32,000 bases of DNA from contig JAPLKZ010000007.1 of the NCBI GenBank assembly GCA_026387835.1, positions 65,284 to 97,283 of the forward strand, read 5' to 3'. The notes beneath the pieces are model-generated. The model saw nothing but the letters and a program-made list of their open reading frames with translations, was not told the origin of the DNA and ran no database searches. Numbering within the stretch: the first letter of the stretch is position 1; each line of letters opens with the position of its first letter. A program made the translations under genes and the position numbers. Below, piece by piece: positions 6,939-31,026 of this stretch. Source of the stretch: Candidatus Saganbacteria bacterium. Lineage in GTDB: Bacteria > Margulisbacteria > WOR-1 > JAKLHX01.

Positions 6939-7864
6939 AAGTATTTATATCAACAACAACTTTCGCGGAGTATGAAGATCAGCCGCTTAAAATGTTAAAG
7001 GACCACGGTATGGAATTCCAGGTGAATCCGCTGCGCAAGAAGCTCTCTGGTGAAGAGCTGATATCTCTTGCTAAGGACGCGCAGGGTCTTATAGCGGGTA
7101 CTGAAGTCCTGACAGCGGAAGTGCTGAAGGAATTAAAAAGCTTAAAAGTGATCTCCCGCTGCGGTGCGGGACTTGATAATGTGGATCTAAAAGCCGCCAA
7201 AGGCCTCAATATCATGGTCTTTAATACGCCTGACGCGCCGACAGATGCAGTTGCTGAATTGACGCTGGGTCTCATGCTCGATTGCCTGCGCAAGATATCA
7301 GGAGCTGACAGGCAGATCAGGCATGGCAAATGGAATAAACCGATGGGAAATCTTTTAAAAGGCAAAAATGTCGGGATCATCGGATATGGAAGGATAGGAA
7401 AAGCGGTTGGACGCCTGGCAGAGGCCTTTGGCGCGAATGTTTCGGCATATGATGTTGCAAAAGATCCTGACGGCAAAAAATATCTTTCTTTTGATCAGTT
7501 GATCGCCGGTTCAGACATTATAAGTCTGCATGTCCCCGGCAGTAAAACAGGCCATTTGATACATGCAAAAGCTGTTTCAAATATGAAAAACGGCGCGTTT
7601 TTGATCAATGCTTCAAGGGGCGGTCTTGTGGACGAGGAGGCTCTTTATGAGGCTTTAAAGTCGGGAAAACTGGCGGGAGCAGGCATAGACACTTTTGAAA
7701 AGGAACCGTATCAAGGAAAACTCATTGAATTGGATAATGCGGTATTGACTTCTCACATAGGATCTTACGCGAAGGAGTCCAGGATAAATATGGAACAACA
7801 AGCGGTCGAAAATCTTATTCGTGGACTTGAGGAAGCTACTGCTAACGGGAGGAGCAATAAATGA
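6935..7864 (+). CDS. D-isomer-specific 2-hydroxyacid dehydrogenase (phosphoglycerate/glycerate dehydrogenase-like, no ACT domain)
   Basis: It has the NAD motif [17 protein letters not shown] and the catalytic triad context [12 protein letters not shown]...[11 protein letters not shown]...LTSHIG. Confidence 0.9.
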
Positions 7865-8853
7865 TGACTGAAAAAGAATGTTATCAATTGTTCAAGAAAT
7901 ATGCAGAAAATTATAAGCCTTTTCAGTTTGATACTGCTAGAAATGATTTTCGTGCTGAATACAAAGGTAAAAATAATCTAATCATTTCGTTCTATAGATA
8001 TTTCAAAGTATTTTATGAGGTCTCTAAAATATGGGGGAAAAACAAATCAAAAGTCGTTGATTTTGGGGTTTTCCCCGGAGTTGTTCCGAAAATATTCCGA
8101 GATCTCTTTTTGAATGATAATTTTGACTATATCGGAGTTGGATTGGGTTTTACCGATGATTTTATTAAGGAGATGGAGAAATTAAAAATAAAGTTACATG
8201 AAACTGAGTTGGACCCATCTTATTTTATGCCTAAAAAAGTCAATCAACTGGATTGTTCTGACGCAGATATAGTTCTTTTTTTGGATGTTATAGAACATCT
8301 GGCTAATCCCACCAATGCGCTTGACGTTGCCAATCACTCCCTAAAAAAAGGCGGATGGCTTATTCTGACGACTGACAATATAACTAATGCGAATAATGCG
8401 ATCCTAATGTTGCTCGGGAAAACGCCATTGCCGCATCCGTTGTTAACAAACATGTATTTCATCGGAGATTGGCGCCCCCATTTCAGAGAATATTCTAAAG
8501 AAGATTTGATGTGGCTGTTACGGAACAGCGGTTTTGAAATTGAAAAACACGAGTATTTTGACAGAAAACAAGGCGAATATTATTTAAACAATGGAAGGAT
8601 AGAAAGACAACGCCAATCTGTTGATAACAGCAAAATAGACAGAAGGCTAAAAATTAAAATCATAAGGAACATTAAAAAAGCAGTAATGGCTTTGTTGAAA
8701 ATTGCATTTTCTTTCTCCCCTCATTTCCGCTCTCATCAAATTATTGTGGCCAGAAAGGTATTTGAAACAGGGGAAATGAAAAAGAAAAGGCCGGAAATGC
8801 AAACTTCGACCGAGGGATGGAATGCTGTCAGGCAAAAATATTTGGGTTATTAA
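7861..8853 (+). CDS. Probable class I methyltransferase with a degenerate motif I
   Basis: It has VVDFGVFPG in the motif I position, then DADIVLFLDVIEHLANP, LKKGGWLILTTDN and REYSKEDLMWLLRNSGFEI. The gene is markedly AT-rich relative to its neighbours. Confidence 0.65.
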   Translation: MMTEKECYQLFKKYAENYKPFQFDTARNDFRAEYKGKNNLIISFYRYFKVFYEVSKIWGKNKSKVVDFGVFPGVVPKIFRDLFLNDNFDYIGVGLGFTDDFIKEMEKLKIKLHETELDPSYFMPKKVNQLDCSDADIVLFLDVIEHLANPTNALDVANHSLKKGGWLILTTDNITNANNAILMLLGKTPLPHPLLTNMYFIGDWRPHFREYSKEDLMWLLRNSGFEIEKHEYFDRKQGEYYLNNGRIERQRQSVDNSKIDRRLKIKIIRNIKKAVMALLKIAFSFSPHFRSHQIIVARKVFETGEMKKKRPEMQTSTEGWNAVRQKYLGY

Positions 8854-8886
8854 CCAAGAAAATTATATAGAACTGGAGGAAATAAT

Positions 8887-9753
8887 ATGAAAATCATAGT
8901 ATTCGGGGGCGCGGGTTTTTTGGGCAGCCACGTGGCGGACGCGCTGACAGAAAAAGGGCACAAAGTCACGGTATTTGACCTGATAAAGTCGCCTTATCTA
9001 AAAGAAGGCCAAAACAGCATCATAGGTGATGTCACTGATCCTGAATGCGTCAGCAAGGCGGTGGCGGGACAGGAGATCGTATATAACTTCGCGGGAATAG
9101 CGGACATGGACGCGGCAAAAATAAAACCGCTTGAAACAGTAAAGAATAACATATACGGAAACACCGTGCTTCTCGAGGCCTGCAGGAAATCAAAGGTCAA
9201 GAGGTTTGTCTTTGCCAGTACTCTTTATGTTTACAGCAAGGCGGGTTCTTTTTACAGGAGCAGCAAGCAGGCGAACGAGCTTTTGATAGAGAACTACCAC
9301 GATATCTATGGCCTCGATTTTACGATACTGAGATACGGATCGCTATACGGGCCAAGAGCGGATGAAAACAACTGGATACACAGGGTGGTAAATCAGGCGC
9401 TGAAAGAAAATAAGATCACCAGGCACGGCGACGGTGAGGAACTGCGCGAGTACATCCACGTGCTGGATGCTGCCAGGCTGAGCGCGGACATACTGTCAGA
9501 TGATTACAATAACCAGTACGTGATAATAGCCGGCCACCAGCAGATGAAGATAAAAGACCTTATGGTGATGATAAGGGAAATACTGAATAACAAGATAAAG
9601 CTCGAATACCTACCCGTCGATTCAACCGAGCACTACGAAATCACTCCGTATGTCTTCAGCCCGAAGATAGCAAAACGTATACAGAGCAATAATTATATTG
9701 ATCTGGGTCAGGGGATACTTGATCTCATCACAAGGATATATGCCGCAAAATGA
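8887..9753 (+). CDS. NAD-dependent epimerase/dehydratase-family SDR (nucleotide-sugar epimerase or ketoreductase)
   Basis: It has MKIIVFGGAGFLGSHVADAL (GxxGxxG) and the YxxxK motif in YRSSKQANE. A GGAGG RBS lies 7 nt upstream. Confidence 0.85.
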   Translation: MKIIVFGGAGFLGSHVADALTEKGHKVTVFDLIKSPYLKEGQNSIIGDVTDPECVSKAVAGQEIVYNFAGIADMDAAKIKPLETVKNNIYGNTVLLEACRKSKVKRFVFASTLYVYSKAGSFYRSSKQANELLIENYHDIYGLDFTILRYGSLYGPRADENNWIHRVVNQALKENKITRHGDGEELREYIHVLDAARLSADILSDDYNNQYVIIAGHQQMKIKDLMVMIREILNNKIKLEYLPVDSTEHYEITPYVFSPKIAKRIQSNNYIDLGQGILDLITRIYAAK

Positions 9754-10397
9754 CAAGAACCAAGGCCATAATATTTGATTTTGACGGGGTGATCGTTGAA
9801 TCAATGGATATAAAAGCCGATGGATTCGCTTTTCTATTTAAGGATTATCCTGATAAGACAGATAAGATCGTTAGATTTCACCTTGACCATGGGGGGATGG
9901 GGAGGATGGAAAAGTTCGAACGGATATATAGAGATTTCCTGGGTCAAAATATTACAGAAACAGAAAAGGTGATCTTAAGCAAAAAACTCACAGAATTCGC
10001 ATATGAAAAAGTCGTGAAATGTCCGTTTGTCGCAGGGGCGAAGGAATTTCTTGAAAAACACAAAGATGACTTTCTCATGTTTGTCGTGTCCGGAACACCC
10101 GATAGTGAGATTAAGAAAATTGCAGGAAAAAGGAAACTTTCCGGATATTTCAAGGAAGTGCTGGGATCACCCAAGAAAAAGACCGAGCTTAACGGGTATA
10201 TTCTTAAAAAATATGATCTAAAGCCTGAGGAAACTGTTTTTATCGGGGATTCGATCGACGATTATATCGGGGTAAAAGACCTGGGGATAAGGTTTATAGG
10301 TAGGATCGACAAAGAAGATCCGTTCAAGGGTCTTGAGATCGAAAGCAGGATAAAAGATCTTTCTGAACTTGAAAGCATGGTGGGTAAAAATGTATAG
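9750..10397 (+). CDS. HAD-superfamily phosphatase (subfamily IA, phosphoglycolate-phosphatase/beta-PGM-like)
   Basis: It has motif I (IIFDFDGVIVES), motif II (VVSGTP) and motif IV (FIGDSIDD). It overlaps the upstream gene by ATGA. Confidence 0.85.
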   Translation: MTRTKAIIFDFDGVIVESMDIKADGFAFLFKDYPDKTDKIVRFHLDHGGMGRMEKFERIYRDFLGQNITETEKVILSKKLTEFAYEKVVKCPFVAGAKEFLEKHKDDFLMFVVSGTPDSEIKKIAGKRKLSGYFKEVLGSPKKKTELNGYILKKYDLKPEETVFIGDSIDDYIGVKDLGIRFIGRIDKEDPFKGLEIESRIKDLSELESMVGKNV

Positions 10398-11043
10398 ATT
10401 GCTGTCGTATCCTTTAAATGAAAAGACCCCCATGTATGGCGATACAAGGCCTGTAATGATCGAGCCATGCAAGCAGATCAGCAGGGGTGATGATTGTGAT
10501 ACGGCTTACGTTACTTTTTCAAACCACAGCGGAACACACATCGATGCCCCAAAGCATTTCCATGCCAAGGGCAGGTCTTTAAGCCAGTTTGGTGCAGAGG
10601 AATTTATTTTTGAAAGACCGCGCATGATGGATTGTCCGAAAAATGAAGACAAACTGGTCATGCCGGATGACATAAAGGACTCGGCCGGCTGTGACCTGCT
10701 GCTGATAAGGACCGGATTTTTTAAATTCAGGGGAAGCGAAAAATATCGGTTGAACAATCCGGGAATTTCAGCAGATGCAGCCCTGTGGATCAGGGAAAAA
10801 TGTCCCGGTATCCGCGCCGTCGGTATCGATACGATATCGATAACTGCTTTTCAAAAAAGGCCGGAAGGAAAGCGAGCGCACCATACTTTCCTTGATCCTG
10901 ATGCAAAAACCGGCAAACCTGTGCTCCTGATAGAAGATATGGATTTGAGCGGCGATCTTGCCGGCCTTAAAAAGGTATTCACGGTACCACTTTATTTTGA
11001 AGGTGTTGACAGCATGCCGTGCACGGTCATAGGGGAATTTTGA
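10390..11043 (+). CDS. Cyclase-family protein (kynurenine-formamidase-like metal hydrolase, PF04199-type)
   Basis: It has the signature FSNHSGTHIDAPKHF (HxGTHxDxPxH). ATG 10390 follows GGTGGG by 5 nt. The TTG 10369 start in the track is less likely. Confidence 0.8.
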   Translation: MYRLLSYPLNEKTPMYGDTRPVMIEPCKQISRGDDCDTAYVTFSNHSGTHIDAPKHFHAKGRSLSQFGAEEFIFERPRMMDCPKNEDKLVMPDDIKDSAGCDLLLIRTGFFKFRGSEKYRLNNPGISADAALWIREKCPGIRAVGIDTISITAFQKRPEGKRAHHTFLDPDAKTGKPVLLIEDMDLSGDLAGLKKVFTVPLYFEGVDSMPCTVIGEF

Positions 11044-11131
11044 TTACGGCAATCAGAAAGAAGGTAATTAGCACTGCTTTACTGATGAGACAAGGTATTA
11101 TCAAGAAAGGAGTTTTTGAAATCAGAAAATA

Positions 11132-12262
11132 ATGAACAAACCTTACGGAGGAAAACTGATCGACAGATACGACCTCCCGGTGAAAACCCCGGCATATGAT
11201 CATGAGGTCACTGTGTCTGATGTTGTGGTGTCTGACCTGTATAATATCGCGGACGGTGTTTTCAGCCCGCTTGAAGGGTTTATGACGGCTAAAGAATTTA
11301 ACAGTGTAGTAATGAAGGGTGTTTTTCGCGATCTTCCATGGACGATACCAATACTTATTGATGTTGACAAGGCGGAAGCCATTGCGGCAGGAAGATCAAA
11401 ACTGGTAGGAATTCGAAATAAAGAAGGCAAACTATTTGCGTCAGTTGAGGTCGAGGATGTCTATGCGCACAATAAAGAACTTCATGCAGAAAAAGTCTTC
11501 GGAACAAATGACAAAAAACACCCCGGGGTAAACTTTGTCCATAACATGAAAGAGTACCTGATCGGCGGAAAGATACTTGTCCACAAGAGGGCCCGACATT
11601 TTGGCAGTTATATGTCTCCGAGACAGACGAGAACGATGTTCGAAAAACTCGATCTTAAAACCATTGCGGGTTTTCAGACAAGAAATGTACTTCACAGAGC
11701 CCACGAATATCTCCAGAGATGCGCTCTGGAGCTGGTGGACGGCCTTTTTCTTCAGCCGATAGTAGGGTGGAAAAAACCGGGCGATTTTACCGCGGAAGCC
11801 GTAATAAAAGCCTACAGAGAATTCATAAAAGATTATTATCCGAGAAAGCGCATCGTTCTTGGCACTTTAAAGACAGCAATGCGCTATGCCGGACCTAAAG
11901 AAGCTGTGTTTCACGCGATCATAAGAAAAAACTTCGGCTGTACCCATTTTATCGTCGGCCGGGATCACGCGGGTGTTGGAGGGTACTACGGCAAATACGA
12001 GGCGCACGATATATTCGACAGGATAAGGGATCTTGGGATCACAATCTTGAGGTTCAAAGAGCCTCTTTACTGCAGTAAATGTGACCTTATAGTCACAGAA
12101 AAGACCTGCGGCCATAATAAAAAATATCACCAGGAAATAAGCGGGACTCTCGTAAGAAGCATCATCAAGAAGGGGGATCAGCCGAAGCACAAGATCTTCA
12201 GGCCTGAGGTTTACGACGTCCTGGTAAGAGAATTTAAGGCGCATCACCTTTTTTATGAATAG
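11132..12262 (+). CDS. sat: Sulfate adenylyltransferase (ATP sulfurylase, homo-oligomeric Sat type)
   Basis: It has GFQTRNVLHRAHEYLQ and HFIVGRDHAGVGGYYGKYEAHDIF, plus a PUA-like N-terminal domain. It is 376 aa. Confidence 0.92.
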   Translation: MNKPYGGKLIDRYDLPVKTPAYDHEVTVSDVVVSDLYNIADGVFSPLEGFMTAKEFNSVVMKGVFRDLPWTIPILIDVDKAEAIAAGRSKLVGIRNKEGKLFASVEVEDVYAHNKELHAEKVFGTNDKKHPGVNFVHNMKEYLIGGKILVHKRARHFGSYMSPRQTRTMFEKLDLKTIAGFQTRNVLHRAHEYLQRCALELVDGLFLQPIVGWKKPGDFTAEAVIKAYREFIKDYYPRKRIVLGTLKTAMRYAGPKEAVFHAIIRKNFGCTHFIVGRDHAGVGGYYGKYEAHDIFDRIRDLGITILRFKEPLYCSKCDLIVTEKTCGHNKKYHQEISGTLVRSIIKKGDQPKHKIFRPEVYDVLVREFKAHHLFYE

Positions 12263-12271
12263 GAGCAAATA

Positions 12272-13696
12272 ATGGATAAGACAAAGATAGTCTGCACTAT
12301 TGGCCCGGCTTCGTGTGACAGGAAAACACTGGAAAAACTTGCGAAAGCCGGGATGAATGTTGCCAGACTGAACGGCTCTCATAACACTCTTGATTGGCAT
12401 GAAAAATCAATTAAACTTATAAGATCGGTCGACAAGAACATCCCGATCCTTCTGGATTTGCCGGGAAGAAAAATCAGGACTGCTAAATTTAAGCATACCT
12501 ACAAGCTTAAAAATGGAAAGACAATAATATTTACTTCGGTAAAAGGGTATAAAAGTTCCGATAAAGTGGCTGTAAATTACAGCGGTCTGCACAGGGACCT
12601 TAAGAGAGGGAATATTATCCTAGCCGATGACGGGACGTTGAAATTCAGGGTTGTCGAGGTAAAAGGCACGAACGTGTTCTGCAGGATACTCACCGACGGG
12701 GAACTCAAAGGCGGCAAGGGGTTGAATGTCCCGTACGTCAAGGTCAATACGCCTCTTATAACTGAAGATGATAAAAGACTCATTAAGTTCGCGATAAAGA
12801 ACAAAGTTGATTGGGTGGGGCTGTCGTTTGTCGAAAACGGCGAACATGTAAGAAAAGTGAAAAAACTTCTGGGAAACAGCGGAATAGGGGTGATAGCAAA
12901 GACAGAGAACAAGTTCGGCATAGACAATATAGAAAGTATCCTGAAAGAATCGGACGGGATCCTAATAGACCGAGGAGACCTGGGTGCCGAGACTTCTATT
13001 GCCAATATAGGGGTGATCCAGAAGAAAGCGATCATAGCGGCGAACAGCAGCGGCAGGCCGGTCATAGTAGCGACGGAGATGCTCCATTCCATGATAGAAA
13101 AACGACAGCCCACAAAAGCAGAGGTTACGGACATAACGAATTCTATAATGGACGGCGCCTCGGCAATAATGTTGTCCGGGGAGACAGCCGTGGGGATAGA
13201 CCCGGTCAATACGGTAAAGGTCATGCGCTCCGTGGCGGACGAAGCAGAAAAATACTTTTCAAGATCCGCAGTCATAGATTCATCGATGACCCAAAAGACA
13301 ATACCCAGCGCAATAGGTAAAAGTATATATGAGATATCAAAAGAGATGCCGATAGACAAGGTTGTCTGTATAACCTTGTCGGGTTATGCCGCAAGGATGA
13401 TAAGCAGGTACAAGCTTGACCAGATGATACTGGCGGTAACGGACAAGATCGAAAAGGCAAGAAAATTCAATCTTTTGTGGGGAGTAACGGGCATTTGCCT
13501 CGGCATTAATTTTGTCAGCAAGGATTATTCGCATATCATCGAGAGCGCAAAACAGCTTTGGAAAGAGGGTTTCCTGAAAAAAGATGACCTGGTAGTGTTT
13601 ACCGCGGTCATACTACCTTATAGGAATGCAAAGATGAACTATCTCCAGATACATAAGATGAGCGATCTGATCGCGCTGTTCAAGTGGGGCAATTGA
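12272..13696 (+). CDS. pyk: Pyruvate kinase (probably the K+-independent subtype)
   Basis: It has KTKIVCTIGPAS, GMNVARLNGSHN, AKTEN, IDRGDLGAE, VATEMLHSM...PTKAEVTDITNSIMDGASAIMLSGETAVG. DLPGRKIR replaces the canonical DTKGPEIR. That puts Lys at the position of rabbit-muscle Glu117, the change reported to remove K+ dependence. This alignment is from memory. Confidence 0.88.
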   Translation: MDKTKIVCTIGPASCDRKTLEKLAKAGMNVARLNGSHNTLDWHEKSIKLIRSVDKNIPILLDLPGRKIRTAKFKHTYKLKNGKTIIFTSVKGYKSSDKVAVNYSGLHRDLKRGNIILADDGTLKFRVVEVKGTNVFCRILTDGELKGGKGLNVPYVKVNTPLITEDDKRLIKFAIKNKVDWVGLSFVENGEHVRKVKKLLGNSGIGVIAKTENKFGIDNIESILKESDGILIDRGDLGAETSIANIGVIQKKAIIAANSSGRPVIVATEMLHSMIEKRQPTKAEVTDITNSIMDGASAIMLSGETAVGIDPVNTVKVMRSVADEAEKYFSRSAVIDSSMTQKTIPSAIGKSIYEISKEMPIDKVVCITLSGYAARMISRYKLDQMILAVTDKIEKARKFNLLWGVTGICLGINFVSKDYSHIIESAKQLWKEGFLKKDDLVVFTAVILPYRNAKMNYLQIHKMSDLIALFKWGN

Positions 13697-20215: not shown

Positions 20216-21082
20216 ATGATCCTTGTCACGGGCGCGAACGGAATGGTCGGTTCTTACGTAAAAGAAGTCTTTTGTGATGAAGAGCTCATTTTAACAGATC
20301 TTCCGGAGCTGGATATCAGCAAAAGGGCGTCTCTTGAGGGAAAACTGAATAAATATAGGCCGGAATATGTGCTTCATCTTGCGGCAGAGACCAATGTTGA
20401 CAAATGTGAGACAGAGATTGAGCACGCTTATAAGATCAATGTTGAAGGCACAAAGAATGTGGCCGAAGCTTGCAAACGGCTTGGTTCGACGCTTATCTAC
20501 ATAAGCACCGGATACGTGTTTAACGGAAAAGGCAGGCAGCTCCATAGCGAAAATGACAGGGCCGACCCTCAAAATGTCTATGGCAGGACAAAGCTTGAGG
20601 GGGAAAAGATCGTACGGGAAATTCTCGAAAAATATTATATTTTCAGAGCTGATTGGATGATAGGCGGAGGTCCGCAGCGGGATAAGAAATATGTGGGTCA
20701 GATCATAAGAAAGTGTGAGCAAAATTCGGACATAGAAGCGATTGAGGATCAATATAGCACCCCAACATTTGCCGGGGATTTTTTAGCCGGAATAAAGCTT
20801 GTGACAAAAACACAACCTTGCGGTCTTTATCATCTTGCGAATAAGGGCATCTGCAGCCGGTATGAGATGGCCGTGGAAATTGCAAGACAATTGGGAACAA
20901 AAAATAAAGTAATTCCCGTACCGTCAAGCGTTTTTAAAGCACCCGCAAAAAGGGCGCAATCCACCGCTCTGCGGAACTTTAAGCTTGAGCAACTGGGGCT
21001 TGATATAATGCCTGGATGGAAAATATCACTTGAAAAATATTTGAATGAATGGAGGCATGAACAAAGCTTTTATGCCAAATAA
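20216..21082 (+). CDS. RmlD-like NAD(P)H-dependent 4-ketoreductase (dTDP-4-dehydrorhamnose reductase family)
   Basis: It has MILVTGANGMVGSYV, HLAAETNVDKCE and YGRTKLEGE (YxxxK). It is 288 aa with an AGGAGG RBS. No rmlA/B/C is in the window, so I assign no gene symbol. Confidence 0.82.
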   Translation: MILVTGANGMVGSYVKEVFCDEELILTDLPELDISKRASLEGKLNKYRPEYVLHLAAETNVDKCETEIEHAYKINVEGTKNVAEACKRLGSTLIYISTGYVFNGKGRQLHSENDRADPQNVYGRTKLEGEKIVREILEKYYIFRADWMIGGGPQRDKKYVGQIIRKCEQNSDIEAIEDQYSTPTFAGDFLAGIKLVTKTQPCGLYHLANKGICSRYEMAVEIARQLGTKNKVIPVPSSVFKAPAKRAQSTALRNFKLEQLGLDIMPGWKISLEKYLNEWRHEQSFYAK

Positions 21083-21971
21083 TTGTGTTGCATTAATGTA
21101 TCACAGGATCAGGCCCCGACTTCCTGGAGGCAGGATATATCCTAATGACGTTATAACAGTTTATGTAGATGAGTTTGATAAGCAGGTAGCATTCCTCAAA
21201 AAGAATTTTAGTGTATTATCAAAAAATGAATTTGTGGAATGTGTTGAGAAAGGCCTCATTTTTCCAAAAAAATCAGTATTAATTACATTCGATGACGGGC
21301 AGACGGATATTTATGAGTTTGCATATCCGATCTTGAAGAAACACAATGTTCCTGCAATAGTATTTCTCCCGACAGATTTTATAGGCACAAACAAGGTGAT
21401 TTGGTGGGATGAATTAGAGTCATATTTAATGGGTTCTTCCATTTCCGGTAATGAAATAGCGCTTCAAATGGCTAAAATGCAAGAAGAGGAAAGAAGGAAA
21501 TGGCTAGATAAAATAAAACTGCAGTATAAAACAGGCGATTTAATATTAAATAGATCTGCATTGACGTGGCAAGAAATAAAGGAGATGACCGATCTTATAT
21601 CATTTCAACCGCACACAAAAAACCACGTACGACTTTCAAATGTTTTGCAAGAGGAAGCGAGAAATGAAATATTAGGATCAAAGCAAGCGATCGAAGAAAA
21701 TCTTGGAATTGTTGCTGATGTATTTGCTTATCCCTATGGCGGAATATCAGATTATAACGAAACTCATGAACTTATTCTTACGAATAATGGTTTTAAGCTG
21801 TCATTTTCAACCTCCGAATGGCATATAAATAAAAGAAGCAGAGTTTTTGCTTTGCCAAGAGTAGCCGTTAACTCCTCAGATAATCTTTTTTTGTTTAGAA
21901 TAAAACTGTCGTGGCTCCCGGTTTTGTTAAAAAGGGCCATAAGGAAGATATATAATAAGTGCAAAAAATAA
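21057..21971 (+). CDS. Polysaccharide deacetylase (NodB homology domain, CE4)
   Basis: It has VLITFDDGQTDIYEFAYPILKKHNVPAIVFLPTDFIG and FQPHTKNH. ATG 21057 follows GGAGG; the track start is 21045. Confidence 0.85.
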   Translation: MNKAFMPNNCVALMYHRIRPRLPGGRIYPNDVITVYVDEFDKQVAFLKKNFSVLSKNEFVECVEKGLIFPKKSVLITFDDGQTDIYEFAYPILKKHNVPAIVFLPTDFIGTNKVIWWDELESYLMGSSISGNEIALQMAKMQEEERRKWLDKIKLQYKTGDLILNRSALTWQEIKEMTDLISFQPHTKNHVRLSNVLQEEARNEILGSKQAIEENLGIVADVFAYPYGGISDYNETHELILTNNGFKLSFSTSEWHINKRSRVFALPRVAVNSSDNLFLFRIKLSWLPVLLKRAIRKIYNKCKK

Positions 21972-23002: not shown

Positions 23003-24134
23003 GATCATCCGTGATCTTAATGAATTCGAAGCGATAAAAGACAAGTGGAACGCGGCTCAGAAGAGCCCGTCAAACATCTTTTTCCTGAGGCACGAATGGC
23101 TTTTAAACTGGTGGAAGTGCTTTGGCGCAGGCAACGGATTGTTTGTCGTATTGATAATAGAAGGCGATAATATTGTCGCGGCCGCGCCGATGATGATACT
23201 CAGAAAAAAATACTTCGGCGTACTGGAGGTCAGAAAGCTTCAATTCATAGCCCATGAGGTCTCCGATTATCTGGATTTTATTATTGTAAAAGATCATGCG
23301 GATAATTTTGCCCTGTTGATAAAACAGATTGAATCGCTCTCATCATTATGGGACTGGGCCGAATTTCTTTATATACCCCAAACATCCGCGTATTTTGAAT
23401 GCTGGAGCAATATAACGTCAGAATTCTTCAGCAGCAGCTTTGAGGAAAAAGATGTCTCCATATTAGCGGATATCGGGCAGTTCGAAAATTTTGCGGGATA
23501 TCTTAAAAGCCTGCATAAAAAGGTAAGGTCCGATGTTGTGCGGCAGTTTAACAATATTAAAAAACTTGGGGAGCTTAAGTTGGAAGTGTGCAATGAACGC
23601 GGTAAAATAGACGGTTTGCTTAACGTTTTTTTTGATCTGCACAAGAAAAAATGGAAAAAAGAAAAGCACGTAAGCCAGTTCCATGATGAATCGCTTATGA
23701 ACAGGTACCGCTTGCTTTCAAGAGATCTGGACGGCAGCGGAATGCTGGAAATGTCATGCCTTTACTGCGCCGGTAATATCGTTGCCATGCATTACGGGTT
23801 CGTTTACGCTGATAGATATTATTGGTATACGCCGACTTATAACCCCCAGTACCGGCAATATTCCCCCGGAAAGCTTTTGCTCGCGAGCCTTATAGAAAAC
23901 GCGATAAAAAGAGGCATTAAAATATTCGATCTTTTGAGAGGAAATGAGCAGTATAAATATTTCTGGACCCGGAAACGGGAGCTGCTATTTGGGACTGTTT
24001 TTGTGAACAGGCGCCTGCCATCCGTAATTAAATATCTTTTCTCAAAAGGGATAAAAGACATGTTTTTGAGAACTGTTGCCGGGCAAAAGCTTAAGAGCAT
24101 TAAAGCAAAAATCAGGTTTTTAATAAAAAAATGA
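22992..24134 (+). CDS. CelD/BioF2-like GNAT (Acetyltransf_6, FemAB-related) acyl/aminoacyl-transferase
   Basis: It has a Trp-rich N-terminus (HEWLLNWWKCFG) and the C-terminal sequence YSPGKLLLASLIENAIKRGIKIFDLLRGNEQYKYFW, characteristic of the CelD-type family. A GGAGGG RBS lies upstream. Confidence 0.7.
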   Translation: METKIIRDLNEFEAIKDKWNAAQKSPSNIFFLRHEWLLNWWKCFGAGNGLFVVLIIEGDNIVAAAPMMILRKKYFGVLEVRKLQFIAHEVSDYLDFIIVKDHADNFALLIKQIESLSSLWDWAEFLYIPQTSAYFECWSNITSEFFSSSFEEKDVSILADIGQFENFAGYLKSLHKKVRSDVVRQFNNIKKLGELKLEVCNERGKIDGLLNVFFDLHKKKWKKEKHVSQFHDESLMNRYRLLSRDLDGSGMLEMSCLYCAGNIVAMHYGFVYADRYYWYTPTYNPQYRQYSPGKLLLASLIENAIKRGIKIFDLLRGNEQYKYFWTRKRELLFGTVFVNRRLPSVIKYLFSKGIKDMFLRTVAGQKLKSIKAKIRFLIKK

Positions 24135-25270
24135 AGAAGATCGTATTTTACAGCGATTCCGCTGAATTCGGCGGAGCCGAAAAATATCTGGTCGATTTGA
24201 TCAATAAGCTCGACAGGGCCAAGTATCGATCAATATGCGTTCTTCCAAAAAACAAAAACAGCTTCAAATTCAGGGGCAAAATCAATAATACAAAAATATA
24301 TGAGCTTTCAAGACCGCGAATATGGCTTGGCCTGACAGGTATATTAATGAAGGAAAAACCTGATATTGTCCACCTCAATATGCATGTTCCTTTCTCATGC
24401 TTTTTTGCTATTCTCGCTTCGAAATTGACCAAAGTACATGGATTGCTGGCTACTGTTCATTCAGTAGTGCCGCCTGCATCGAGATCTTTATTGTTGAAGT
24501 TTATTAAGCATCGGCTTTCAAATTTATTGCTTACTAAAATAGATGCGTTTATCTGCGTTTCAAGGAACAGCAAAGAAATGTTTGCCGAAAATTACAAAAT
24601 CGATAATGACAAAATATCTGTTGTCTATAATGGCATAGACATGAGTGATGCGGAAGGGTCTGATGCAGCAGGGCTAAAAAAACAACTTGGGATAAACGGG
24701 CGCGACAGGATCGTCGGTGTTGTATCAAGAATTGTCAAAGATAAAGGTGTTGATGATTTTCTCCGGGCGTCAAAAAAGGTCCTCGCTTCATGTCCTGATA
24801 CAACTTTCCTGATCGCGGGGGACGGATATCTTGGGGATAAGATGAAGGACCTGTCGGTTTCTCTTGGTATCAGCAAAAAAGTCGTTTTTGCAGGTGAAGT
24901 CAAGGATGTCTTCAGCCATATCAACATTATGGATATTTGTGTTATGCCATCCCGTCACGAATCCATGCCATATGTTATTCTTGAATATATAGCGATGGGG
25001 AAGCCGGCCATTGCCTCAAAAGTGGGCGGAATTCCTGAAGTTTTGGATGATGGGGTAAATGGAATTTTGTTTGAGCCGAAAGACATTGATAAATTAGCTC
25101 AGAAAGCCGTTGAACTGCTCGATAATAAGGAAAAAGCGCTTGAAATATCGCGGAATGCTAAAATAAAATCCGATGAATATACCATCGAAAAAATGATCGA
25201 AAGGACTATCAATGTTTATGAATCTATAGAAAGCCCCATAATAATAAAGGAGAGTATTAATGAAGAATAA
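24131..25270 (+). CDS. Glycosyltransferase family 4
   Basis: It has FGGAEKY at the N-terminus and MPSRHESMPYVILEYIAMGKPAIASKVGGIPEVLDDGVNGILFEPKD. It overlaps the upstream gene by ATGA. Confidence 0.9.
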   Translation: MKKIVFYSDSAEFGGAEKYLVDLINKLDRAKYRSICVLPKNKNSFKFRGKINNTKIYELSRPRIWLGLTGILMKEKPDIVHLNMHVPFSCFFAILASKLTKVHGLLATVHSVVPPASRSLLLKFIKHRLSNLLLTKIDAFICVSRNSKEMFAENYKIDNDKISVVYNGIDMSDAEGSDAAGLKKQLGINGRDRIVGVVSRIVKDKGVDDFLRASKKVLASCPDTTFLIAGDGYLGDKMKDLSVSLGISKKVVFAGEVKDVFSHINIMDICVMPSRHESMPYVILEYIAMGKPAIASKVGGIPEVLDDGVNGILFEPKDIDKLAQKAVELLDNKEKALEISRNAKIKSDEYTIEKMIERTINVYESIESPIIIKESINEE

Positions 25271-25424
25271 AGAAATGCCCGTTAAAAATTATAAAAAACG
25301 AAAACACGTTATATTTGCATATCTTCTTTTTGCTCCGACATTATTAAACATAAATATTGCAAGGTTCGTCATTGAAAGTGAAAATAATATTAGTAATCTT
25401 GTAAATAAAATCATTGAGGTGTAA
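25260..25424 (+). CDS. Unlisted 54-aa small ORF (MKNKEMPVKNYKKRKHVIFAYLLFAPTLLNINIARFVIESENNISNLVNKIIEV), hypothetical
   Basis: It is below the 60-aa track cutoff; I translated it by hand. AAGGAG lies at 25247-25252, 7 nt before ATG 25260. Its TAA stop ends 4 nt before the radical SAM start. It has a basic N-terminus followed by a hydrophobic stretch. Coding status is unproven. Confidence 0.3.
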   Translation: MKNKEMPVKNYKKRKHVIFAYLLFAPTLLNINIARFVIESENNISNLVNKIIEV

Positions 25425-25428
25425 GCAA

Positions 25429-26883
25429 ATGAAAGTGCTGTTTATTTATTCCTTGTGCAGTATAGCCTCAGCGAGCAAGCCCCTAAGATCACCAGAATGG
25501 ATCCAATTCGGGATCTCGTATATATCCGCAATTTTAAAACAAAACGGGCATTCTACAAAACTGATCATATTAAGCAGAATTTCCGGTGAAAAAAACAAAA
25601 ATATCATAGACAAATATATTAATGAGTTTAAGCCTGAATTGGTGTGCTTTACTTCTGTAAGCAGCGAATATTCATTTGTTGTTGAAATAGCAAGATATAT
25701 AAGATCAAACTATCCGGATTTATTTTTATTAATCGGGGGGGCGCATGTTTCACTGAACCCGGAAGGAGCGTTAAATGATTTTGATGCTTTATGTATTGGA
25801 GAAGGGGAATATCCTGTCTTAGAGTTGGTTTCAAGCATCGAAGAAAACAAACCCCCACAGTCAATACCAAATTTATGGATCAAACATGATGATAAAATAG
25901 AAAAAAATCCATCCAGGCCATTCATATCAGATCTTGATGTTTTGCCTTTTCCCGATAGAGATATGTGGCAGGAGTGGATAAAGGAAGATGCCTCTGCAAG
26001 ACACACCGTTTTATTGGGACGCGGTTGCCCGTTTAATTGCAGTTATTGCAGTAATCATGCTTTAAGAAAAATAGCATCAGGAACTTATGTCAGATATAGG
26101 TCTCCGGACAATATCATTAGCGAAATAAATGAACTGGTTGATAAATATCCACAAAAAACCGAGATCTATCTGGAAGTGGAAACAATCGGAGTCAATAAAA
26201 GCTGGACATTAGAATTATGTTCAAAGCTCAGGAGTTTTAACCAGGCACATAAAAACCAAATACATTTTGGGGCTAATTTAAGGATTGTACCCAATGTTAA
26301 TTATCGGGATATATTCCATGCTTTAAAAAATGCAAATTTTAGGTTTATTAATATTGGGCTTGAATCAGGAAGTGAAAAAATACGCCGAGAGATATTGAGA
26401 CGCAATTATTCAAATGCAGACATAATAAATGCGGTAAAATTAGCACGCGAATATGGACTACAGGTCTCTTTTTTTAACATGGTCGGGCTCCCCGGGGAAA
26501 CGGTTGATGATTTTCATGAAACAATCGAAATGAACAAAATATGCTTGCCAGATTGGATTAATTTTTCAATATTTTACCCATATCCCGGGACAGATTTATA
26601 TACTTTTTGTAAAGCTAAAGGTTATTTGGGCGATTCAATTGATACGAGAATGGAAAGGGGGCGAGCAATATTAAATCTTCCATACTTTAGTAAAAAGGAA
26701 GTGGAACATAATTACATTTGGTTCAATTACAATGTTTATAAAGGGCATAAACCATTAATACGGTTATTATCACAGGCATTAAAACTGCAAATTAGGGCTA
26801 ACCCATTCTTATTTGCGGTATATAGCTATTTTAAGTATATTGCTGCGAAAATGCTTAATGTTGCCATAAAAATGCTCATATGA
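25429..26883 (+). CDS. B12-binding-domain radical SAM enzyme (class B radical SAM, possible C-methyltransferase)
   Basis: It has an N-terminal Rossmann-like cobalamin-binding region (KVLFIYS...LVCFTSVSS...LLIGGAHV) and the CxxxCxxC cluster motif GRGCPFNCSYCSNH. ATG 25429 has GAGGTG 7 nt upstream; the track start TTG 25414 is unlikely. GC is about one third in the lines I sampled. Confidence 0.87.
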   Translation: MKVLFIYSLCSIASASKPLRSPEWIQFGISYISAILKQNGHSTKLIILSRISGEKNKNIIDKYINEFKPELVCFTSVSSEYSFVVEIARYIRSNYPDLFLLIGGAHVSLNPEGALNDFDALCIGEGEYPVLELVSSIEENKPPQSIPNLWIKHDDKIEKNPSRPFISDLDVLPFPDRDMWQEWIKEDASARHTVLLGRGCPFNCSYCSNHALRKIASGTYVRYRSPDNIISEINELVDKYPQKTEIYLEVETIGVNKSWTLELCSKLRSFNQAHKNQIHFGANLRIVPNVNYRDIFHALKNANFRFINIGLESGSEKIRREILRRNYSNADIINAVKLAREYGLQVSFFNMVGLPGETVDDFHETIEMNKICLPDWINFSIFYPYPGTDLYTFCKAKGYLGDSIDTRMERGRAILNLPYFSKKEVEHNYIWFNYNVYKGHKPLIRLLSQALKLQIRANPFLFAVYSYFKYIAAKMLNVAIKMLI

Positions 26884-27143
26884 AAAGAAGAAAGTTCCTC
26901 ATTTTCCACACAATGAAAAAACCCGTGATATCAACTAATGTCGGGGGTATTCCGGAGATTATTGAAAATGGTTTTTCAGGATTGCTTATACCCCCAAATG
27001 ATCCTAAAGCGATTGAAAACGCCGTGCTGGATCTGCTGTTTGACAAAGAGAAAGCCCGAGATATAGGCAAAAACGCGCTGGAGGTGTCCAGAAAGATATC
27101 TGTTCAGGACATGGCGTCAAGTGCAGAATATATAAATGAATAA
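26880..27143 (+). pseudogene. C-terminal remnant (~75 aa) of a GT4 glycosyltransferase
   Basis: KKPVISTNVGGIPEIIENGFSGLLIPPNDPKAIENAVLDLLFDKEKARDIGKNA matches only the last part of a GT4, for example GKPAIASKVGGIPEVLDDGVNGILFEPKDIDKLAQKAVELLDNKEKALEISRNA in the gene at 24131. I saw no N-terminal Rossmann half or ExFG motif upstream in a hand translation. Confidence 0.7.
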
Positions 27144-28212
27144 GAAAAAAGTGCTGGTTTTCTATTATGGGGGGGTTTATGGAGGCGTTAATGCGTTCAT
27201 TGATGCTTTCACTTCCATGATAAGCGAGAAGTATTCGTATAAAACGATATCTTTGAGGTCGTTGCAGGGAGAAGGGCCCCGAAAGAACAATCCTCTTTTG
27301 AAAAGCAGGGTTGTATCGATGTTTAATGCATTTTCAAGACTATTTTTGAATATTCGAAGTCAGGAATATGACATTATTGTTTCAAACGAACTAACAACAG
27401 CCGTATTTTGTTGTATCATTAAGGTCTTCCGTAAAAATATAAGGCACGTATGCGTCGTTCATTGTAACTACAAAGATATCCCCATCGGCTTCGCGTGGAG
27501 ATCCGTCATCCAGGCATTCAAAAAAGTATTGATAAAGAATACCGACAAATTTGTTTGCGTATCAAAATTTGTCGCGCAGACGATAAGTGATTACGGGGTT
27601 GAACAGGATAAAATCGAAGTGATCTATAACTGCATAAAATCGCAGGAGAATATACGCATTGACAAAGAGCAAACTTGCAATTCAAGGGTTAATATCGCGT
27701 ACATCGGCCGGCTTTCAAAAGAAAAGGGCGTAGATATTTTGCTGAAAATCGCAGACGGCCTTTTGCCCTTAAAGGAAAAAGTGGCATTTAAAATATTAGG
27801 AGACGGAGCGATGCAGGATCAGGTTGCCAGCTATTCAGGCTTACACCCCGAGTATTTCCGGTATCGCGGATTTGTCAGGGATCCTTTTGACGATAAAGAC
27901 ATGGATATTTTGATAATGCCTTCCCGCAGCGAAGGCTTTCCGATCGTGTTGTTAGAAGCGATGCAGAATGGCGCCTTAATTATAGCGGCAAATGTAGGGG
28001 GTATTCCGGAAATAGTCATAAATGGTTATAATGGAATTCTGTGCGGACAAAGTGATGTTAACGCGTATTGTGAAGCAGTAAAAAGATTAATAAGCGACGG
28101 CGACTTAAGATATAAGCTGCGGCACAACGCAATAGACACAATGAGGAACAAATTTTCTTTTGAGATAGCGAAAGAAAAATATTTAAGTCTTTTGGATCAG
28201 CTGGAAAAATGA
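27136..28212 (+). CDS. Glycosyltransferase family 4
   Basis: It has IMPSRSEGFPIVLLEAMQNGALIIAANVGGIPEIVINGYNGILCGQSD and a full-length two-domain size of 358 aa. Confidence 0.88.
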   Translation: MNKKKVLVFYYGGVYGGVNAFIDAFTSMISEKYSYKTISLRSLQGEGPRKNNPLLKSRVVSMFNAFSRLFLNIRSQEYDIIVSNELTTAVFCCIIKVFRKNIRHVCVVHCNYKDIPIGFAWRSVIQAFKKVLIKNTDKFVCVSKFVAQTISDYGVEQDKIEVIYNCIKSQENIRIDKEQTCNSRVNIAYIGRLSKEKGVDILLKIADGLLPLKEKVAFKILGDGAMQDQVASYSGLHPEYFRYRGFVRDPFDDKDMDILIMPSRSEGFPIVLLEAMQNGALIIAANVGGIPEIVINGYNGILCGQSDVNAYCEAVKRLISDGDLRYKLRHNAIDTMRNKFSFEIAKEKYLSLLDQLEK

Positions 28213-28263: not shown

Positions 28264-30192
28264 ATGTTAATGGTCTTCCCGTTTATATTCTGTATTTTGG
28301 CGTTTCTCGGCTTTATCAAGCTCTTATCGGATAATAGTAAAGGTTTTTATACCGTCTTGCGGGAGGCTTTTATTTGGACTGCTCTCATGGCGGGGCTAAC
28401 GGCGACTTTGATCATTGAGATCCTGAGCATCTTTAAAGCTATTGTTCCGATTTACGTCTCAATATCATGGTTGGGCGCATCAATAGCCGCAGGAATAGCG
28501 CTTTTTTCGATGCGTCATCGGAGATCCCCCGGGGCTTGTTCAAGGCCGTCTTTAGATCCCTTTGATAAGTCATTGATAGGCACGATTGTTTTCGTTATTG
28601 CCTTGACGTTTGTCATCGCTTTGCTAGCCCCGCCGAATAATTCTGATGCCATGACCTATCATATGGCCCGGGTAGCTCATTGGGCGCAGAACCATAGCGT
28701 GCTTAACTATCCTACTCATACATTGCGTCAGTTATACATGTCCCCGGGCGCAGAATTTATTATCTTGAATTTTCAGGTTTTATTGAGGAATGATTATTTG
28801 GCCAATTTTGTCCAGTGGTTTGCAATGATAGGAAGCATTATCGCAGTTACTCTGCTTGTTAAATTAATGAAGGGCGGCATAAAAGCTCAGATAATTTCCG
28901 GTTTTGTCGTGTCCACGATACCAATGGGTATTATGCAGTCCACCAGCACCCAAACCGATTATCTGACCGCTTTCTGGCTTTTATGCCTGGCATTATTTGT
29001 TGTCAGATCGAACCATGAAAACGGTCCTCTGAATGTTATCGGCGCGGGAGTTGCTTTAGGCCTGGCGGTGCTTACTAAGCCAACGGCCTGCTTTTTTGCC
29101 GCGCCTTTTGTTCTATGGTTGTTTGTCATTTGGTTCAGGAGGGACATGAAGAATTCCTGGAAGACATTTTTACTTGTATTTTTGACCGCGGTATTATTAA
29201 ACTCAGGTTTCTTTTTGAGGAATGTGGCGCTTTTTCACGCTCCTTTCGGGCCTCATGATGACTATACTCAGAGCGAGATACACTCGCCTCGCAATATAGC
29301 GTCAAATATTGTGAAGTATTTTTCTTTGAATTTGAACACCCCTTCCAGTGCGGTAAACAGGCTGATCTATACGGCCATCGCTGATCTTCATCACTTATCT
29401 AAAGTTGATATCAATGACCGGAGGACTTCAGCATTTGCAAACTATTCAGTTGAAACCTACATTCCCCATGAGGATCTTGTGGGTAATCCCATGCATTTAT
29501 TATTGATCATTATTTGCGGGTTGGCTCTTTTCAGTAAAAATATCAGCAGGGGAAATAAAGAATTGCTGTATTATTTTTCTTCGGTAGCCGCGGGTTTTTT
29601 GCTGTTTTTTGTGTTCATCAAATACCAGCCGTGGCTTAACCGTTTGATGCTGCCTGTTTTTCTATTGTTCTCCCCGATTACGGGAATAGCAATGAAAAGG
29701 ATATTTTCCAGAGCGGCCCTGATATTATTTCTACTGATTTTATTTTTTGTGGCAGTCCCGCCGTTAGTGTTCAATATTAAAAAACCTTTGGCAATCCCTC
29801 CGTTCGTGCCTGACAGATATAAATATTCGCTTTTTACCCGGTCAAGGCAATATTTTTATTTTGCCGCCAAGCCGGAAACATATCAATGCTATAAGAAGAT
29901 CGCTGAGACAATTAAAAGGCGCAACTATTCGCAGATCGGAATGGAAGAGTTTAGCAAGGAATATGAATATCCGTTGTGGATCGTTCTTGAGGGCAACGGC
30001 AGAAAATTCCGCATGGAACATGTGGGGGTCACGAATATTTCAAGATCTATCCCCGCTGATTTTACGCCTTCTGTAATTATATGTATCGGATCAGACCCGA
30101 AAATCTCTCAAAAATATGCAAAAAAGTTTAAATATAGAGAAGTAATCGGCTATGACAGCTTTGGTTCGCTGGTTATGCTGTACGGTCAATAG
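28264..30192 (+). CDS. Polytopic GT-C-fold membrane glycosyltransferase (ArnT/PMT, GT39/GT83-like)
   Basis: It is 642 aa with many hydrophobic segments. The first-loop motif LLAPPNNSDAMTYHMARVAHW has an Asp-containing loop as in ArnT/PMT enzymes. It also has LAVLTKPTA and a soluble C-terminal ~130 aa. An O-antigen-polymerase-like role cannot be excluded. Confidence 0.68.
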   Translation: MLMVFPFIFCILAFLGFIKLLSDNSKGFYTVLREAFIWTALMAGLTATLIIEILSIFKAIVPIYVSISWLGASIAAGIALFSMRHRRSPGACSRPSLDPFDKSLIGTIVFVIALTFVIALLAPPNNSDAMTYHMARVAHWAQNHSVLNYPTHTLRQLYMSPGAEFIILNFQVLLRNDYLANFVQWFAMIGSIIAVTLLVKLMKGGIKAQIISGFVVSTIPMGIMQSTSTQTDYLTAFWLLCLALFVVRSNHENGPLNVIGAGVALGLAVLTKPTACFFAAPFVLWLFVIWFRRDMKNSWKTFLLVFLTAVLLNSGFFLRNVALFHAPFGPHDDYTQSEIHSPRNIASNIVKYFSLNLNTPSSAVNRLIYTAIADLHHLSKVDINDRRTSAFANYSVETYIPHEDLVGNPMHLLLIIICGLALFSKNISRGNKELLYYFSSVAAGFLLFFVFIKYQPWLNRLMLPVFLLFSPITGIAMKRIFSRAALILFLLILFFVAVPPLVFNIKKPLAIPPFVPDRYKYSLFTRSRQYFYFAAKPETYQCYKKIAETIKRRNYSQIGMEEFSKEYEYPLWIVLEGNGRKFRMEHVGVTNISRSIPADFTPSVIICIGSDPKISQKYAKKFKYREVIGYDSFGSLVMLYGQ

Positions 30193-30225: not shown

Positions 30226-31026
30226 ATGACCGATGAAAGAAAGGAACAAACTGATTTGCCGGAACATAACAGAGAAACCGGTCTTTCGCTTTCAGTGTTG
30301 ATGCCGGTATACAATGAAAAATCCACGATATCAGAATGTATCGCAAGAGTATTTGCGGTCAAGAGCCCTTATATCTCCAGGATCGAGGTCATTACGGTTG
30401 ACGACGGATCTACCGATGGTACGAGAGATATTTTGCGCGAACTTCAAAAAAAGCACCCCGGGCAATTGATCTATATTGAGCATGAAAGAAATCAAGGAAA
30501 AGGCGCGGCGATCCGGACTGCCATTGACAGGGCAGGGAATGATATCTGCATTATTCAGGATGCGGACCTGGAATATGACCCTAATGATTATCACAAGATA
30601 ATGGCCCCTTTTGTCAAAGAAAATGCCGATGCGGTTTTTGGCTCCAGGTTCTTAACCGGGGATTATAAACGCCTTCTGAATTACAGGCACGCGGTCATAA
30701 ACCGTTTTTTAACTTTTCTGACCAATGTCGTGACAAATATCAATTTTACGGATATGGAAACATGCTATAAAGCTGTACGCACCGAACTTCTAAAATCCAT
30801 ACCGATCAGAGCAAATTGTTTCGATCTCGAACCGGAAATATCGATCAAGCTTGCCAAAAGAGGCGCACATATATTCGAGGTGCCCATAAGTTACAGCGGA
30901 CGGACAAGCGCGGAGGGTAAAAAGATCGGCTGGAAAGACGGTCTTATGGCGCTGAGAACACTGCTTAAATACAGTTTTGTGAATGACAGCAGCAAGAACG
31001 GCCCTAAAGCGGGTAAAAAGACATAA
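30226..31026 (+). CDS. GT2 polyprenyl-phosphate glycosyltransferase (DPM1/ArnC/GtrB-like)
   Basis: It has LSVLMPVYNEKSTI, ITVDDGSTDGT, NQGKGAAI and IIQDADLEYDPNDY. Confidence 0.84.
   Translation: MTDERKEQTDLPEHNRETGLSLSVLMPVYNEKSTISECIARVFAVKSPYISRIEVITVDDGSTDGTRDILRELQKKHPGQLIYIEHERNQGKGAAIRTAIDRAGNDICIIQDADLEYDPNDYHKIMAPFVKENADAVFGSRFLTGDYKRLLNYRHAVINRFLTFLTNVVTNINFTDMETCYKAVRTELLKSIPIRANCFDLEPEISIKLAKRGAHIFEVPISYSGRTSAEGKKIGWKDGLMALRTLLKYSFVNDSSKNGPKAGKKT

Follow-up and report, generated by a model that had tools for sequence, protein, structure and literature searches.

In a glycan locus of an uncultured Margulisbacterium, the GT4 glycosyltransferase gene GT4a (24131-25270) is a chimera whose first 289 codons belong with a 3' end that now lies 1.9 kb downstream. 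The window (the whole stretch of DNA analyzed, 32,000 nt; positions 65,284 to 97,283 of the forward strand of contig JAPLKZ010000007.1, GenBank assembly GCA_026387835.1) comes from a 13-contig metagenome-assembled genome (MAG). The original 3' end of GT4a forms the core of an 87-codon open reading frame (ORF; the stump, 26880-27143), followed by the next intact GT4 gene (GT4b, 27136-28212). Both breakpoints can be placed, the DNA between them (24998-26912) is of foreign composition, and the arrangement occurs in many independently made assemblies. Very probably, a 1,915-nt foreign segment was inserted at codon 289/290 of a resident GT4 gene, fusing a new tail to it and displacing the old one. 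As read from the sequence, the product of this event would be a full-length chimeric GT4 and an added gene for a B12-binding radical S-adenosylmethionine (SAM) protein, with the old 3' end set off downstream. The features described for 24131-28212 are on the plus strand, and coordinates are those of the window.

Results

The N-terminal half that the stump lacks was evidently not deleted and corresponds to the first 289 codons of GT4a. The region 24131-28212 was used as the query of a DNA search against 40 related genomes, and local BLAST was afterwards run on the locus of a relative from the same family and another genus (G007). There, a stretch matching window positions 24129-24997 (76.5%) abuts a stretch matching 26911-27013 (82.5%), at L011rc 7743-8611 and 8607-8709, respectively, and both matches lie within one 367-aa GT4 gene (P0002), from a Candidatus Margulisiibacteriota MAG. 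A second orthologue (P0003, Candidatus Margulisiibacteriota) is likewise an intact GT4, in which sequence of the type of GT4a codons 1 to 289 continues into sequence of the stump type.

In a three-way codon alignment, GT4a tracks G007 to codon 289 (ATG, 24995-24997), after which identity is random-like, and the stump is unrelated to G007 until 26912 and tracks it from the ATG at 26913-26915 on. These two ATGs, both copies of ancestral codon 289, mark the left and the right joint. GT4a codons 1 to 288 are 73.6% identical to P0002 in amino acids and 76.4% in nucleotides, and codons 289 to 363 are about 31-32% and 47% identical, respectively; for stump codons 12 to 86 against P0002 codons 289 to 363, the values are 60% and 68%. 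Compared with P0003, identity is 65.7% for the N part, 32.4% for the GT4a tail, and 58.3% for the stump. Because P0002 and P0003 conserve their N and C parts equally (70.6% and 70.5% identity), the drop in the GT4a tail is not ordinary C-terminal divergence; at 31-32%, this tail is as far from the orthologues as unrelated GT4s are.

Trees of the two halves place them accordingly. In the tree of the N part, GT4a groups with P0002 and P0003 (Shimodaira-Hasegawa-like approximate likelihood ratio test [SH-aLRT], 99), and in the tree of the C part, the stump forms a clade with the same two proteins (support, 98/96), with the GT4a tail outside. Forcing the GT4a tail into that clade costs 15.6 units of log likelihood (lnL). 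The N part of GT4a has even identity to G007 along its length (72-86% per 30 codons), which gives no sign of a crossover closer to the 5' end; mosaicism inside the N part was rejected. Exact sharing at both joints amounts to 3 nt (ATG), and 5 nt (CAATG) are shared between the right joint and G007. All copies resemble each other at codons 290 to 292, which limits the resolution of the joints to a span of some four codons, about 289 to 292.

The initial annotation, made from the letters alone, had described the 87-codon ORF as encoding only the end of a GT4 enzyme, similar to the C termini of both intact GT4s and starting exactly at the ATGA junction with the radical SAM stop. This description holds. 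The stump product is a GT4 tail, since its Pfam match is confined to positions 115 to 170 of the 172 of Glycos_transf_1; it is 37.5% and 39% identical to the C termini of GT4a and GT4b, respectively, and its start overlaps the radical SAM stop as ATGA (26880-26883). It has neither an N-domain nor the EX7E motif and, because a complete catalytic domain is missing, is a fragment and not a member enzyme. That the ORF is the remnant of a resident GT4 is likewise borne out, by its clade with P0002 and P0003 and by its contiguity with the N part in G007. The further observation that no matching N-terminal half lies upstream is correct for 25260-26880, where no GT4 N-terminal remnant was found in any frame, and incorrect overall, the missing half being, in all appearance, the 5' part of GT4a.

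No conserved stand-alone gene corresponds to the stump. Among its 150 best matches listed from 1.84 billion representative proteins, there was no other short protein, the rest being long proteins with glycosyltransferase domains. In 41 genomes, all other matches to stump-like sequence fell within frames of 324 to 680 aa, with the one exception of a gene cut by a contig end. The rate of nonsynonymous substitution (dN) relative to G007 is 0.273 for the stump against 0.159 for the GT4a N part (1.7 times), and the ratio of nonsynonymous to synonymous rates (dN/dS) of the stump is about 0.2. These values would fit some relaxation after displacement, at the low power that 75 codons afford.

The insert (24998-26912) has a GC content of 35.0%, compared with 46.9% for the genome, and only 0.4% of 1,915-nt windows of the genome are at or below 35.0%. 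By part, GC content is 40.3% in GT4a codons 1 to 289 (24131-24997), 37.4% in codons 290 to 379 (24998-25270; 35.6% at third codon positions [GC3]), 26.6% in the stretch of spacer and small ORF (sORF), 35.5% in the radical SAM gene (25429-26883), 42.1% in the stump core (26913-27143), and 40.0% in GT4b (27136-28212). The drop that had been estimated from hand counts is thus reproduced by computation (35.0% against about 40-42% in the flanks), and the discontinuity is real but modest. With the insert in the lowest 0.4% of genome windows, the earlier assignment of the radical SAM gene to a compositionally foreign cassette is upheld.

Exact-protein look-ups recovered the gene order GT4a, sORF, radical SAM gene, stump, and GT4b in independent assemblies of at least 10 sequencing runs, on contigs that are 99.9-100% identical to the window; with that many independent assemblies sharing the structure, it is not an assembly chimera. 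In the three assemblies whose differences were located, none falls within 24131-28212. Those assemblies have an extra TCT after 23056, in a GNAT-like gene (381 versus 380 aa), and G for A at 29754, in a PMT_2 gene; this indel and this single-nucleotide polymorphism are their only differences over the 2.4 to 13 kb of the window that they cover.

The chimeric GT4a product has both Pfam domains at full length (Glyco_transf_4, residues 13 to 172, 83.7 bits; Glycos_transf_1, residues 183 to 344, 130.5 bits). Its resident part (24131-24997) takes in the GT-B domain at the N terminus and the larger share of the C-terminal one, and its foreign part (24998-25270) comprises codons 290 to 379 and the stop. 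Residues K205, E277, E285, and G299 are invariant in a 36-sequence alignment; the EX7E residues E277 and E285 lie in the resident part, and G299 lies in the foreign part. The AlphaFold2 model of the chimera shows a complete GT-B fold (pLDDT, 92.9) but does not tell an active from an inactive enzyme. In this model, the joint falls between helix 281-288, just past the EX7E motif, and strand 293-296, and the exchanged module consists of the last two beta-strands, the GGxPE loop, and the C-terminal helices. The chimeric GT4a is probably active.

Behind the GT4 3' end, the insert carries a 54-codon sORF (25260-25424), with AAGGAG 7 nt upstream; the radical SAM gene (25429-26883; 484 aa; ATG start with a GAGGTG Shine-Dalgarno sequence), for which TTG at 25414 is a possible alternative start; and a 29-nt right-end tail (26884-26912). 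The sORF matches no family in Pfam or NCBIfam; nothing like it lies upstream of radical SAM homologues in other genomes, and its own genome contains no further copy. The sORF has a hydrophobic stretch (VIFAYLLFAPTLLNINIA) and may be either a putative small membrane protein or a donor-gene remnant. The 29-nt tail is without similarity to the G007 GT4 gene and, together with the ATG at 26880, encodes the first 11 codons of the stump ORF, MKRRKFLIFHT. Since a GT4 gene follows the radical SAM gene in two related genomes (G012 and G014), this tail may derive from the beginning of whichever gene came next in the donor. Neither terminal inverted repeats nor flanking or long direct repeats are present at the insert ends (24998/26912), and no recombinase, integrase, or transposase domain was found in the insert with Pfam and NCBIfam. 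The insert lacks the defining features of a site-specific integrative element and of an insertion sequence or transposon.

To the right of the insert, the displaced 3' end (26913-27143; ancestral codon 289 to the end) forms the homologous core of the stump, and the end of the stump is overlapped by GT4b (ATGAATAA); this overlap is presumably the original junction of the resident GT4 gene with its downstream neighbor. No Shine-Dalgarno sequence is evident before GT4b (27136). A scan for promoters and terminators gave counts no higher than in shuffled controls.

The radical SAM protein matches PF02310 (B12-binding; 60.0 bits; cut-off, 32.1) and PF04055 (Radical_SAM; 90.3 bits; cut-off, 29.5), and the CxxxCxxC cluster motif is present in its translation as CPFNCSYC. 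The named NCBIfam families, including HpnJ, BchE, HpnR, PhpK, and MCR Gln C-methyltransferase, all scored below their curated cut-offs (best, HpnJ, 139.3 versus 577.6, and BchE, 120.2 versus 481.35; others lower). Its best matches among solved structures are an unnamed radical SAM protein (9ccb) and then AprD4 (6fd2; E value, 3.6e-13). At E values of ≤1e-30, there are 2,292 homologues, the best 65% identical, from Elusimicrobia, Omnitrophota, Patescibacteria, Planctomycetota, Chloroflexota, Margulisbacteria, and even Nanoarchaeota. All of the 11 homologous loci read are glycan gene clusters, in which the neighbors are mostly GT2 genes and often genes for DUF2304, FkbM-type methyltransferases, PMT_2 proteins, and further B12-radical SAM paralogues. 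At loci L027, L028, L030, L031, L033, and L034, the radical SAM homologue usually adjoins a GT2 gene of 229 to 295 aa. One homologue (P0128; 758 aa) is a fusion of GT2 and radical SAM protein.

A glycan-tailoring role of the radical SAM enzyme is well supported by association, because the loci of its homologues lie in glycan clusters beside GT2 and related genes, and the enzyme probably modifies a sugar of the glycan. The adjacency and the fusion point to a functional partnership of the family with a GT2, possibly a polyprenyl-phosphate sugar synthase. GenK and AprD4 of the aminoglycoside pathways (PMC8950095, PMC5461906) likewise have an N-terminal B12-binding domain, a CxxxCxxC radical SAM core, and a sugar-modification neighborhood; unlike them, the enzyme in the window stays below every named-family cut-off and has its homologues in glycan loci beside GT2. 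Its reaction may be a methylation, a dehydration, or a rearrangement. A methylating activity would be a guess: enzymes of this class most commonly catalyze (C-)methylation (PMC8950095), whereas AprD4 is a dehydratase, and AprD4-type relatives carry the B12 domain without methylating (PMC5461906).

Discussion

The history that we propose starts from an ancestral glycan locus with one intact GT4 gene, made up of GT4a codons 1 to 289 and the sequence now at 26913-27143. The lower-GC foreign segment would have entered between codons 289 and 290, four codons past the EX7E motif. Since the left end of the segment falls at the equivalent codon of a different GT4 gene, the 90 codons with which it opens would have been fused in frame to give a full-length chimeric GT4, and the sORF and the B12-binding radical SAM gene would have been brought in behind them. 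The original last ~76 codons would have been pushed 1.9 kb downstream, where they would stay open because a frame starting at the ATG of the insert tail, which overlaps the radical SAM stop, continues into them. No resident sequence would have been lost at either joint. The net outcome would be the gain of a radical SAM glycan-tailoring enzyme and the exchange of a transferase end, with no transferase lost.

An in-frame left joint at a homologous position is very unlikely to be chance and suggests that the resident and donor GT4 genes paired at the conserved motif. The recombination that we infer would have been directed from one side by homology or microhomology at this motif. It could have been a homology-facilitated illegitimate recombination at the border of homology, or else a template switch or strand-annealing repair in which 1.9 kb was copied from the donor before a return to the point of departure. 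That both joints lie at one codon with an overlap of 3 to 5 nt would fit either route.

For the donor, a layout of GT4 gene, radical SAM gene, and next gene is plausible, with the sORF perhaps between the first two. In G014, the layout is GT4-radical SAM-GT4, and the upstream GT4 is only 26-28% identical. None of the eight best-homologue loci read has the GT4-sORF-radical SAM layout with a related tail. A donor within the same genome, acting by gene conversion, was rejected, as the best intragenomic match to the tail is 38-47%. As a separate observation, genes to the right of the insert are also neighbors of the radical SAM gene in G014, in a different order: locus L014 (G014:C17, about 4970-12300) has a GT2 gene 66% identical to window 30226-31026 and a PMT_2 gene 43% identical to 28264-30192, followed by the GT4, radical SAM, and GT4 genes.

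Several points weigh against an insertion at codon 289/290. The placement of the GT4a tail is marginal in the approximately unbiased (AU) test (p, 0.044; 85 columns). Only 3 to 5 nt are shared exactly at the joints, too little to demonstrate a RecA-type anchor or to fix the mechanism. There are only two close orthologues of the resident GT4, both from a different genus, and the sole one with genomic context, in G007, has different neighbor genes. No strain with an empty site was seen, the next-best match to GT4a being 65% identical. The donor was not found: the nearest radical SAM homologue is 65% identical, and the GT4a tail (residues 290 to 379) matched only itself among 5.8 billion proteins. 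Finally, low GC content is not unique to the insert within the window, the genes at 7861-8853 and 21045-21971 each having 35.3%.

The initial annotation had a different history in mind, in which the 5' ~0.9 kb of a further GT4 gene, the third and distinct from the other two, gave way to a cassette at 25260-26880, GT4a was an unrelated intact neighbor, and a sugar-adding step was swapped for a radical step. The lack of an N-terminal remnant within 25260-26880, the identity of only 37.5% between the stump and the GT4a C terminus, and a GC content that is lowest across 25100-26900 all suit that history. We nevertheless give it very little credence, as the G007 orthologue of GT4a runs straight into stump sequence at the same codon, the two half-trees are congruent only if the GT4a N part and the stump are one gene, and the GT4a tail stands as far from the orthologues as unrelated GT4s do. 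The 867 nt held to have been replaced persist as GT4a codons 1 to 289, no glycosyltransferase was lost where a radical SAM gene was added, and the left boundary lies at ~24998 instead of 25260 because the cassette includes the last 90 codons of GT4a. What remains of that proposal is the foreign cassette, the GT4 remnant, and the view of the locus as a snapshot of diversification.

The polarity could also be reversed, with the arrangement in the window being older and the gene in G007 and P0003 derived by deletion-fusion of neighboring GT4a-like and complete stump-type genes, while the stump in the window lost its N-terminal half separately. Unequal recombination between tandem GT4 paralogues at the EX7E region could yield such fusions, and the neighbor genes do differ between G007 and the window; but two independent events with an identical codon-level boundary would be required, and N-type and stump-type sequences are joined in P0002, P0003, and, more loosely, P0004, with N and C parts equally conserved. 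As the insert is also foreign in composition, and a relative with a full-length GT4a-type gene, a radical SAM gene, and a complete stump-type GT4 gene was absent from 41 genomes and 5.8 billion proteins, we regard this reversal as very improbable. That the junctions at ~24998 or 26880-26912 are metagenome-assembly artefacts has a practically negligible probability: paralogous GT4 genes in glycan loci can be misjoined, and the source is a 13-contig MAG, but the same arrangement spans both junctions in at least 10 independently assembled runs, and the paralogues, at nucleotide identities of at most about 47%, are too dissimilar to mislead an assembler. Insertion into the resident GT4 gene accounts for the arrangement far better.

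Compatible with that insertion, and concerning only the present role of the stump, is the idea that it persists because its translation, as a bridging ORF or small protein, lets ribosomes pass on from the ATGA of the radical SAM stop to the GT4b start (ATGAATAA), which would preserve a translational coupling once given by the resident GT4. In its favor, all 87 codons are open with a stop/start overlap at either end, GT4b has no evident Shine-Dalgarno sequence of its own, and stump dN/dS against G007 is still ~0.2. We consider it rather unlikely, however, given that the dN of the stump, 1.7 times that of the N part, suggests relaxed constraint, that no stand-alone homologue was found among the 150 best matches listed or in the 41 genomes, and that 87 codons could well remain open by chance when decay has been limited; the available assemblies are near-identical, so selection is not measurable from them. 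The stump is probably a decaying remnant, possibly still translated through coupling between the radical SAM gene and GT4b.

Phage 21 and e14 in Escherichia coli icd, and many tRNA-gene islands, are integrative elements that supply a substitute 3' end for their target. As with these elements, the target in the window is intact through an in-frame replacement 3' end, and the original end is left as a stump beyond the insert; unlike them, the 1.9-kb insert has no integrase or recombinase and no att-like repeat, and its replacement end has only ~47% DNA identity to the original one. O-antigen and capsule clusters are mosaic, with low-GC, horizontally exchanged blocks and glycosyltransferase remnants at recombination joints. 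The window resembles them in having a low-GC exchanged block in a surface-polysaccharide locus and a gene fragment at the joint; it differs in that both breakpoints can be placed to the codon and the missing half of the remnant is found in the intact chimeric neighbor. The event is of an ordinary kind, that of mosaic glycan-locus evolution, in an unusually clean case.

The closest architectural match is the C-terminal displacement found in rhs, CdiA, and type VI secretion system (T6SS) effector genes (Jackson et al. 2009, BMC Genomics 10:584, as cited in PMC3150448 and PMC5361080), for which a combination of one-sided homologous and illegitimate recombination has been proposed (PMC5361080). 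In both cases, a constant 5' part is kept, the new 3' end arrives with an accessory gene, the former 3' end stands downstream as an orphan without a 5' part, and the joint is at a conserved motif. In the window, a 5' part carries a phylogenetically foreign 3' part, and the downstream orphan is its true partner, as in a displacement. Unlike the effector loci, however, the gene in the window is a housekeeping-type GT4 and not a toxin, the accessory gene encodes a radical SAM protein and not an immunity protein, and the orphan is single, with no array and no recurrence in the 40 related genomes.

Homology-facilitated illegitimate recombination combines one homologous anchor with one illegitimate joint (PMC3240628; de Vries and Wackernagel 2002 and Prudhomme et al. 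2002, as cited in PMC5361080). The window shares with it foreign DNA beside a homologous GT4 segment, a second joint with microhomology over a few nucleotides, and the absence of mobile-element genes. It departs from it in that no recipient DNA was deleted, both joints are at the same codon, and only 3 to 5 nt are demonstrably shared. Template-switch or strand-annealing repair fits equally well.

For annotation, GT4a should be treated as a chimera, the 87-codon ORF as a displaced tail and not a gene of its own, and the acquired 1.9-kb unit as starting inside GT4a. The locus would offer a codon-resolved example of how glycan loci of the uncultured phylum Candidatus Margulisiibacteriota gain tailoring enzymes while leaving the recipient gene unbroken. 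The radical SAM family concerned, with thousands of members across phyla consistently in glycan loci, is biochemically uncharacterised.

In G012, the radical SAM orthologue (56% aa identity) is bracketed by a 44-nt direct repeat whose copies are 84% identical (L013 [G012:C4] 8801-8844 and 10363-10406). The repeat spans the ribosome-site region of the GT4 gene downstream (412 aa) and its first ~14 codons; of the two copies, the one upstream forms an 18-codon stub, and its AGGAGG, formed by the GT4 'GG' codons, lies just before the GTG start of the radical SAM gene. This looks like an independent, mirror-image insertion of the same cassette at the 5' end of a GT4 gene. The duplicated gene end flanking an orthologous radical SAM gene favors a broader idea, that GT4 gene ends are recurrent landing pads for a mobile B12-radical SAM cassette in Margulisbacteria glycan loci and that the co-transferred GT4 C-terminal subdomain, with the GGxPE loop and C-terminal helices of the donor-binding half, is functionally matched to the sugar modified by the radical SAM enzyme. 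A single insertion would then install a new sugar chemistry together with the transferase specificity for it, a specificity swap analogous to that of polymorphic toxins. We think this improbable. Against its generality, 10 of the 12 radical SAM loci examined have no flanking repeats like those of G012, and there is no further stump in the 40 relatives.

The two other GC-poor genes of the window, a 330-aa ORF (7861-8853) and a polysaccharide deacetylase gene (21045-21971), both as GC poor as the cassette, may be separate acquisitions in the same glycan locus.

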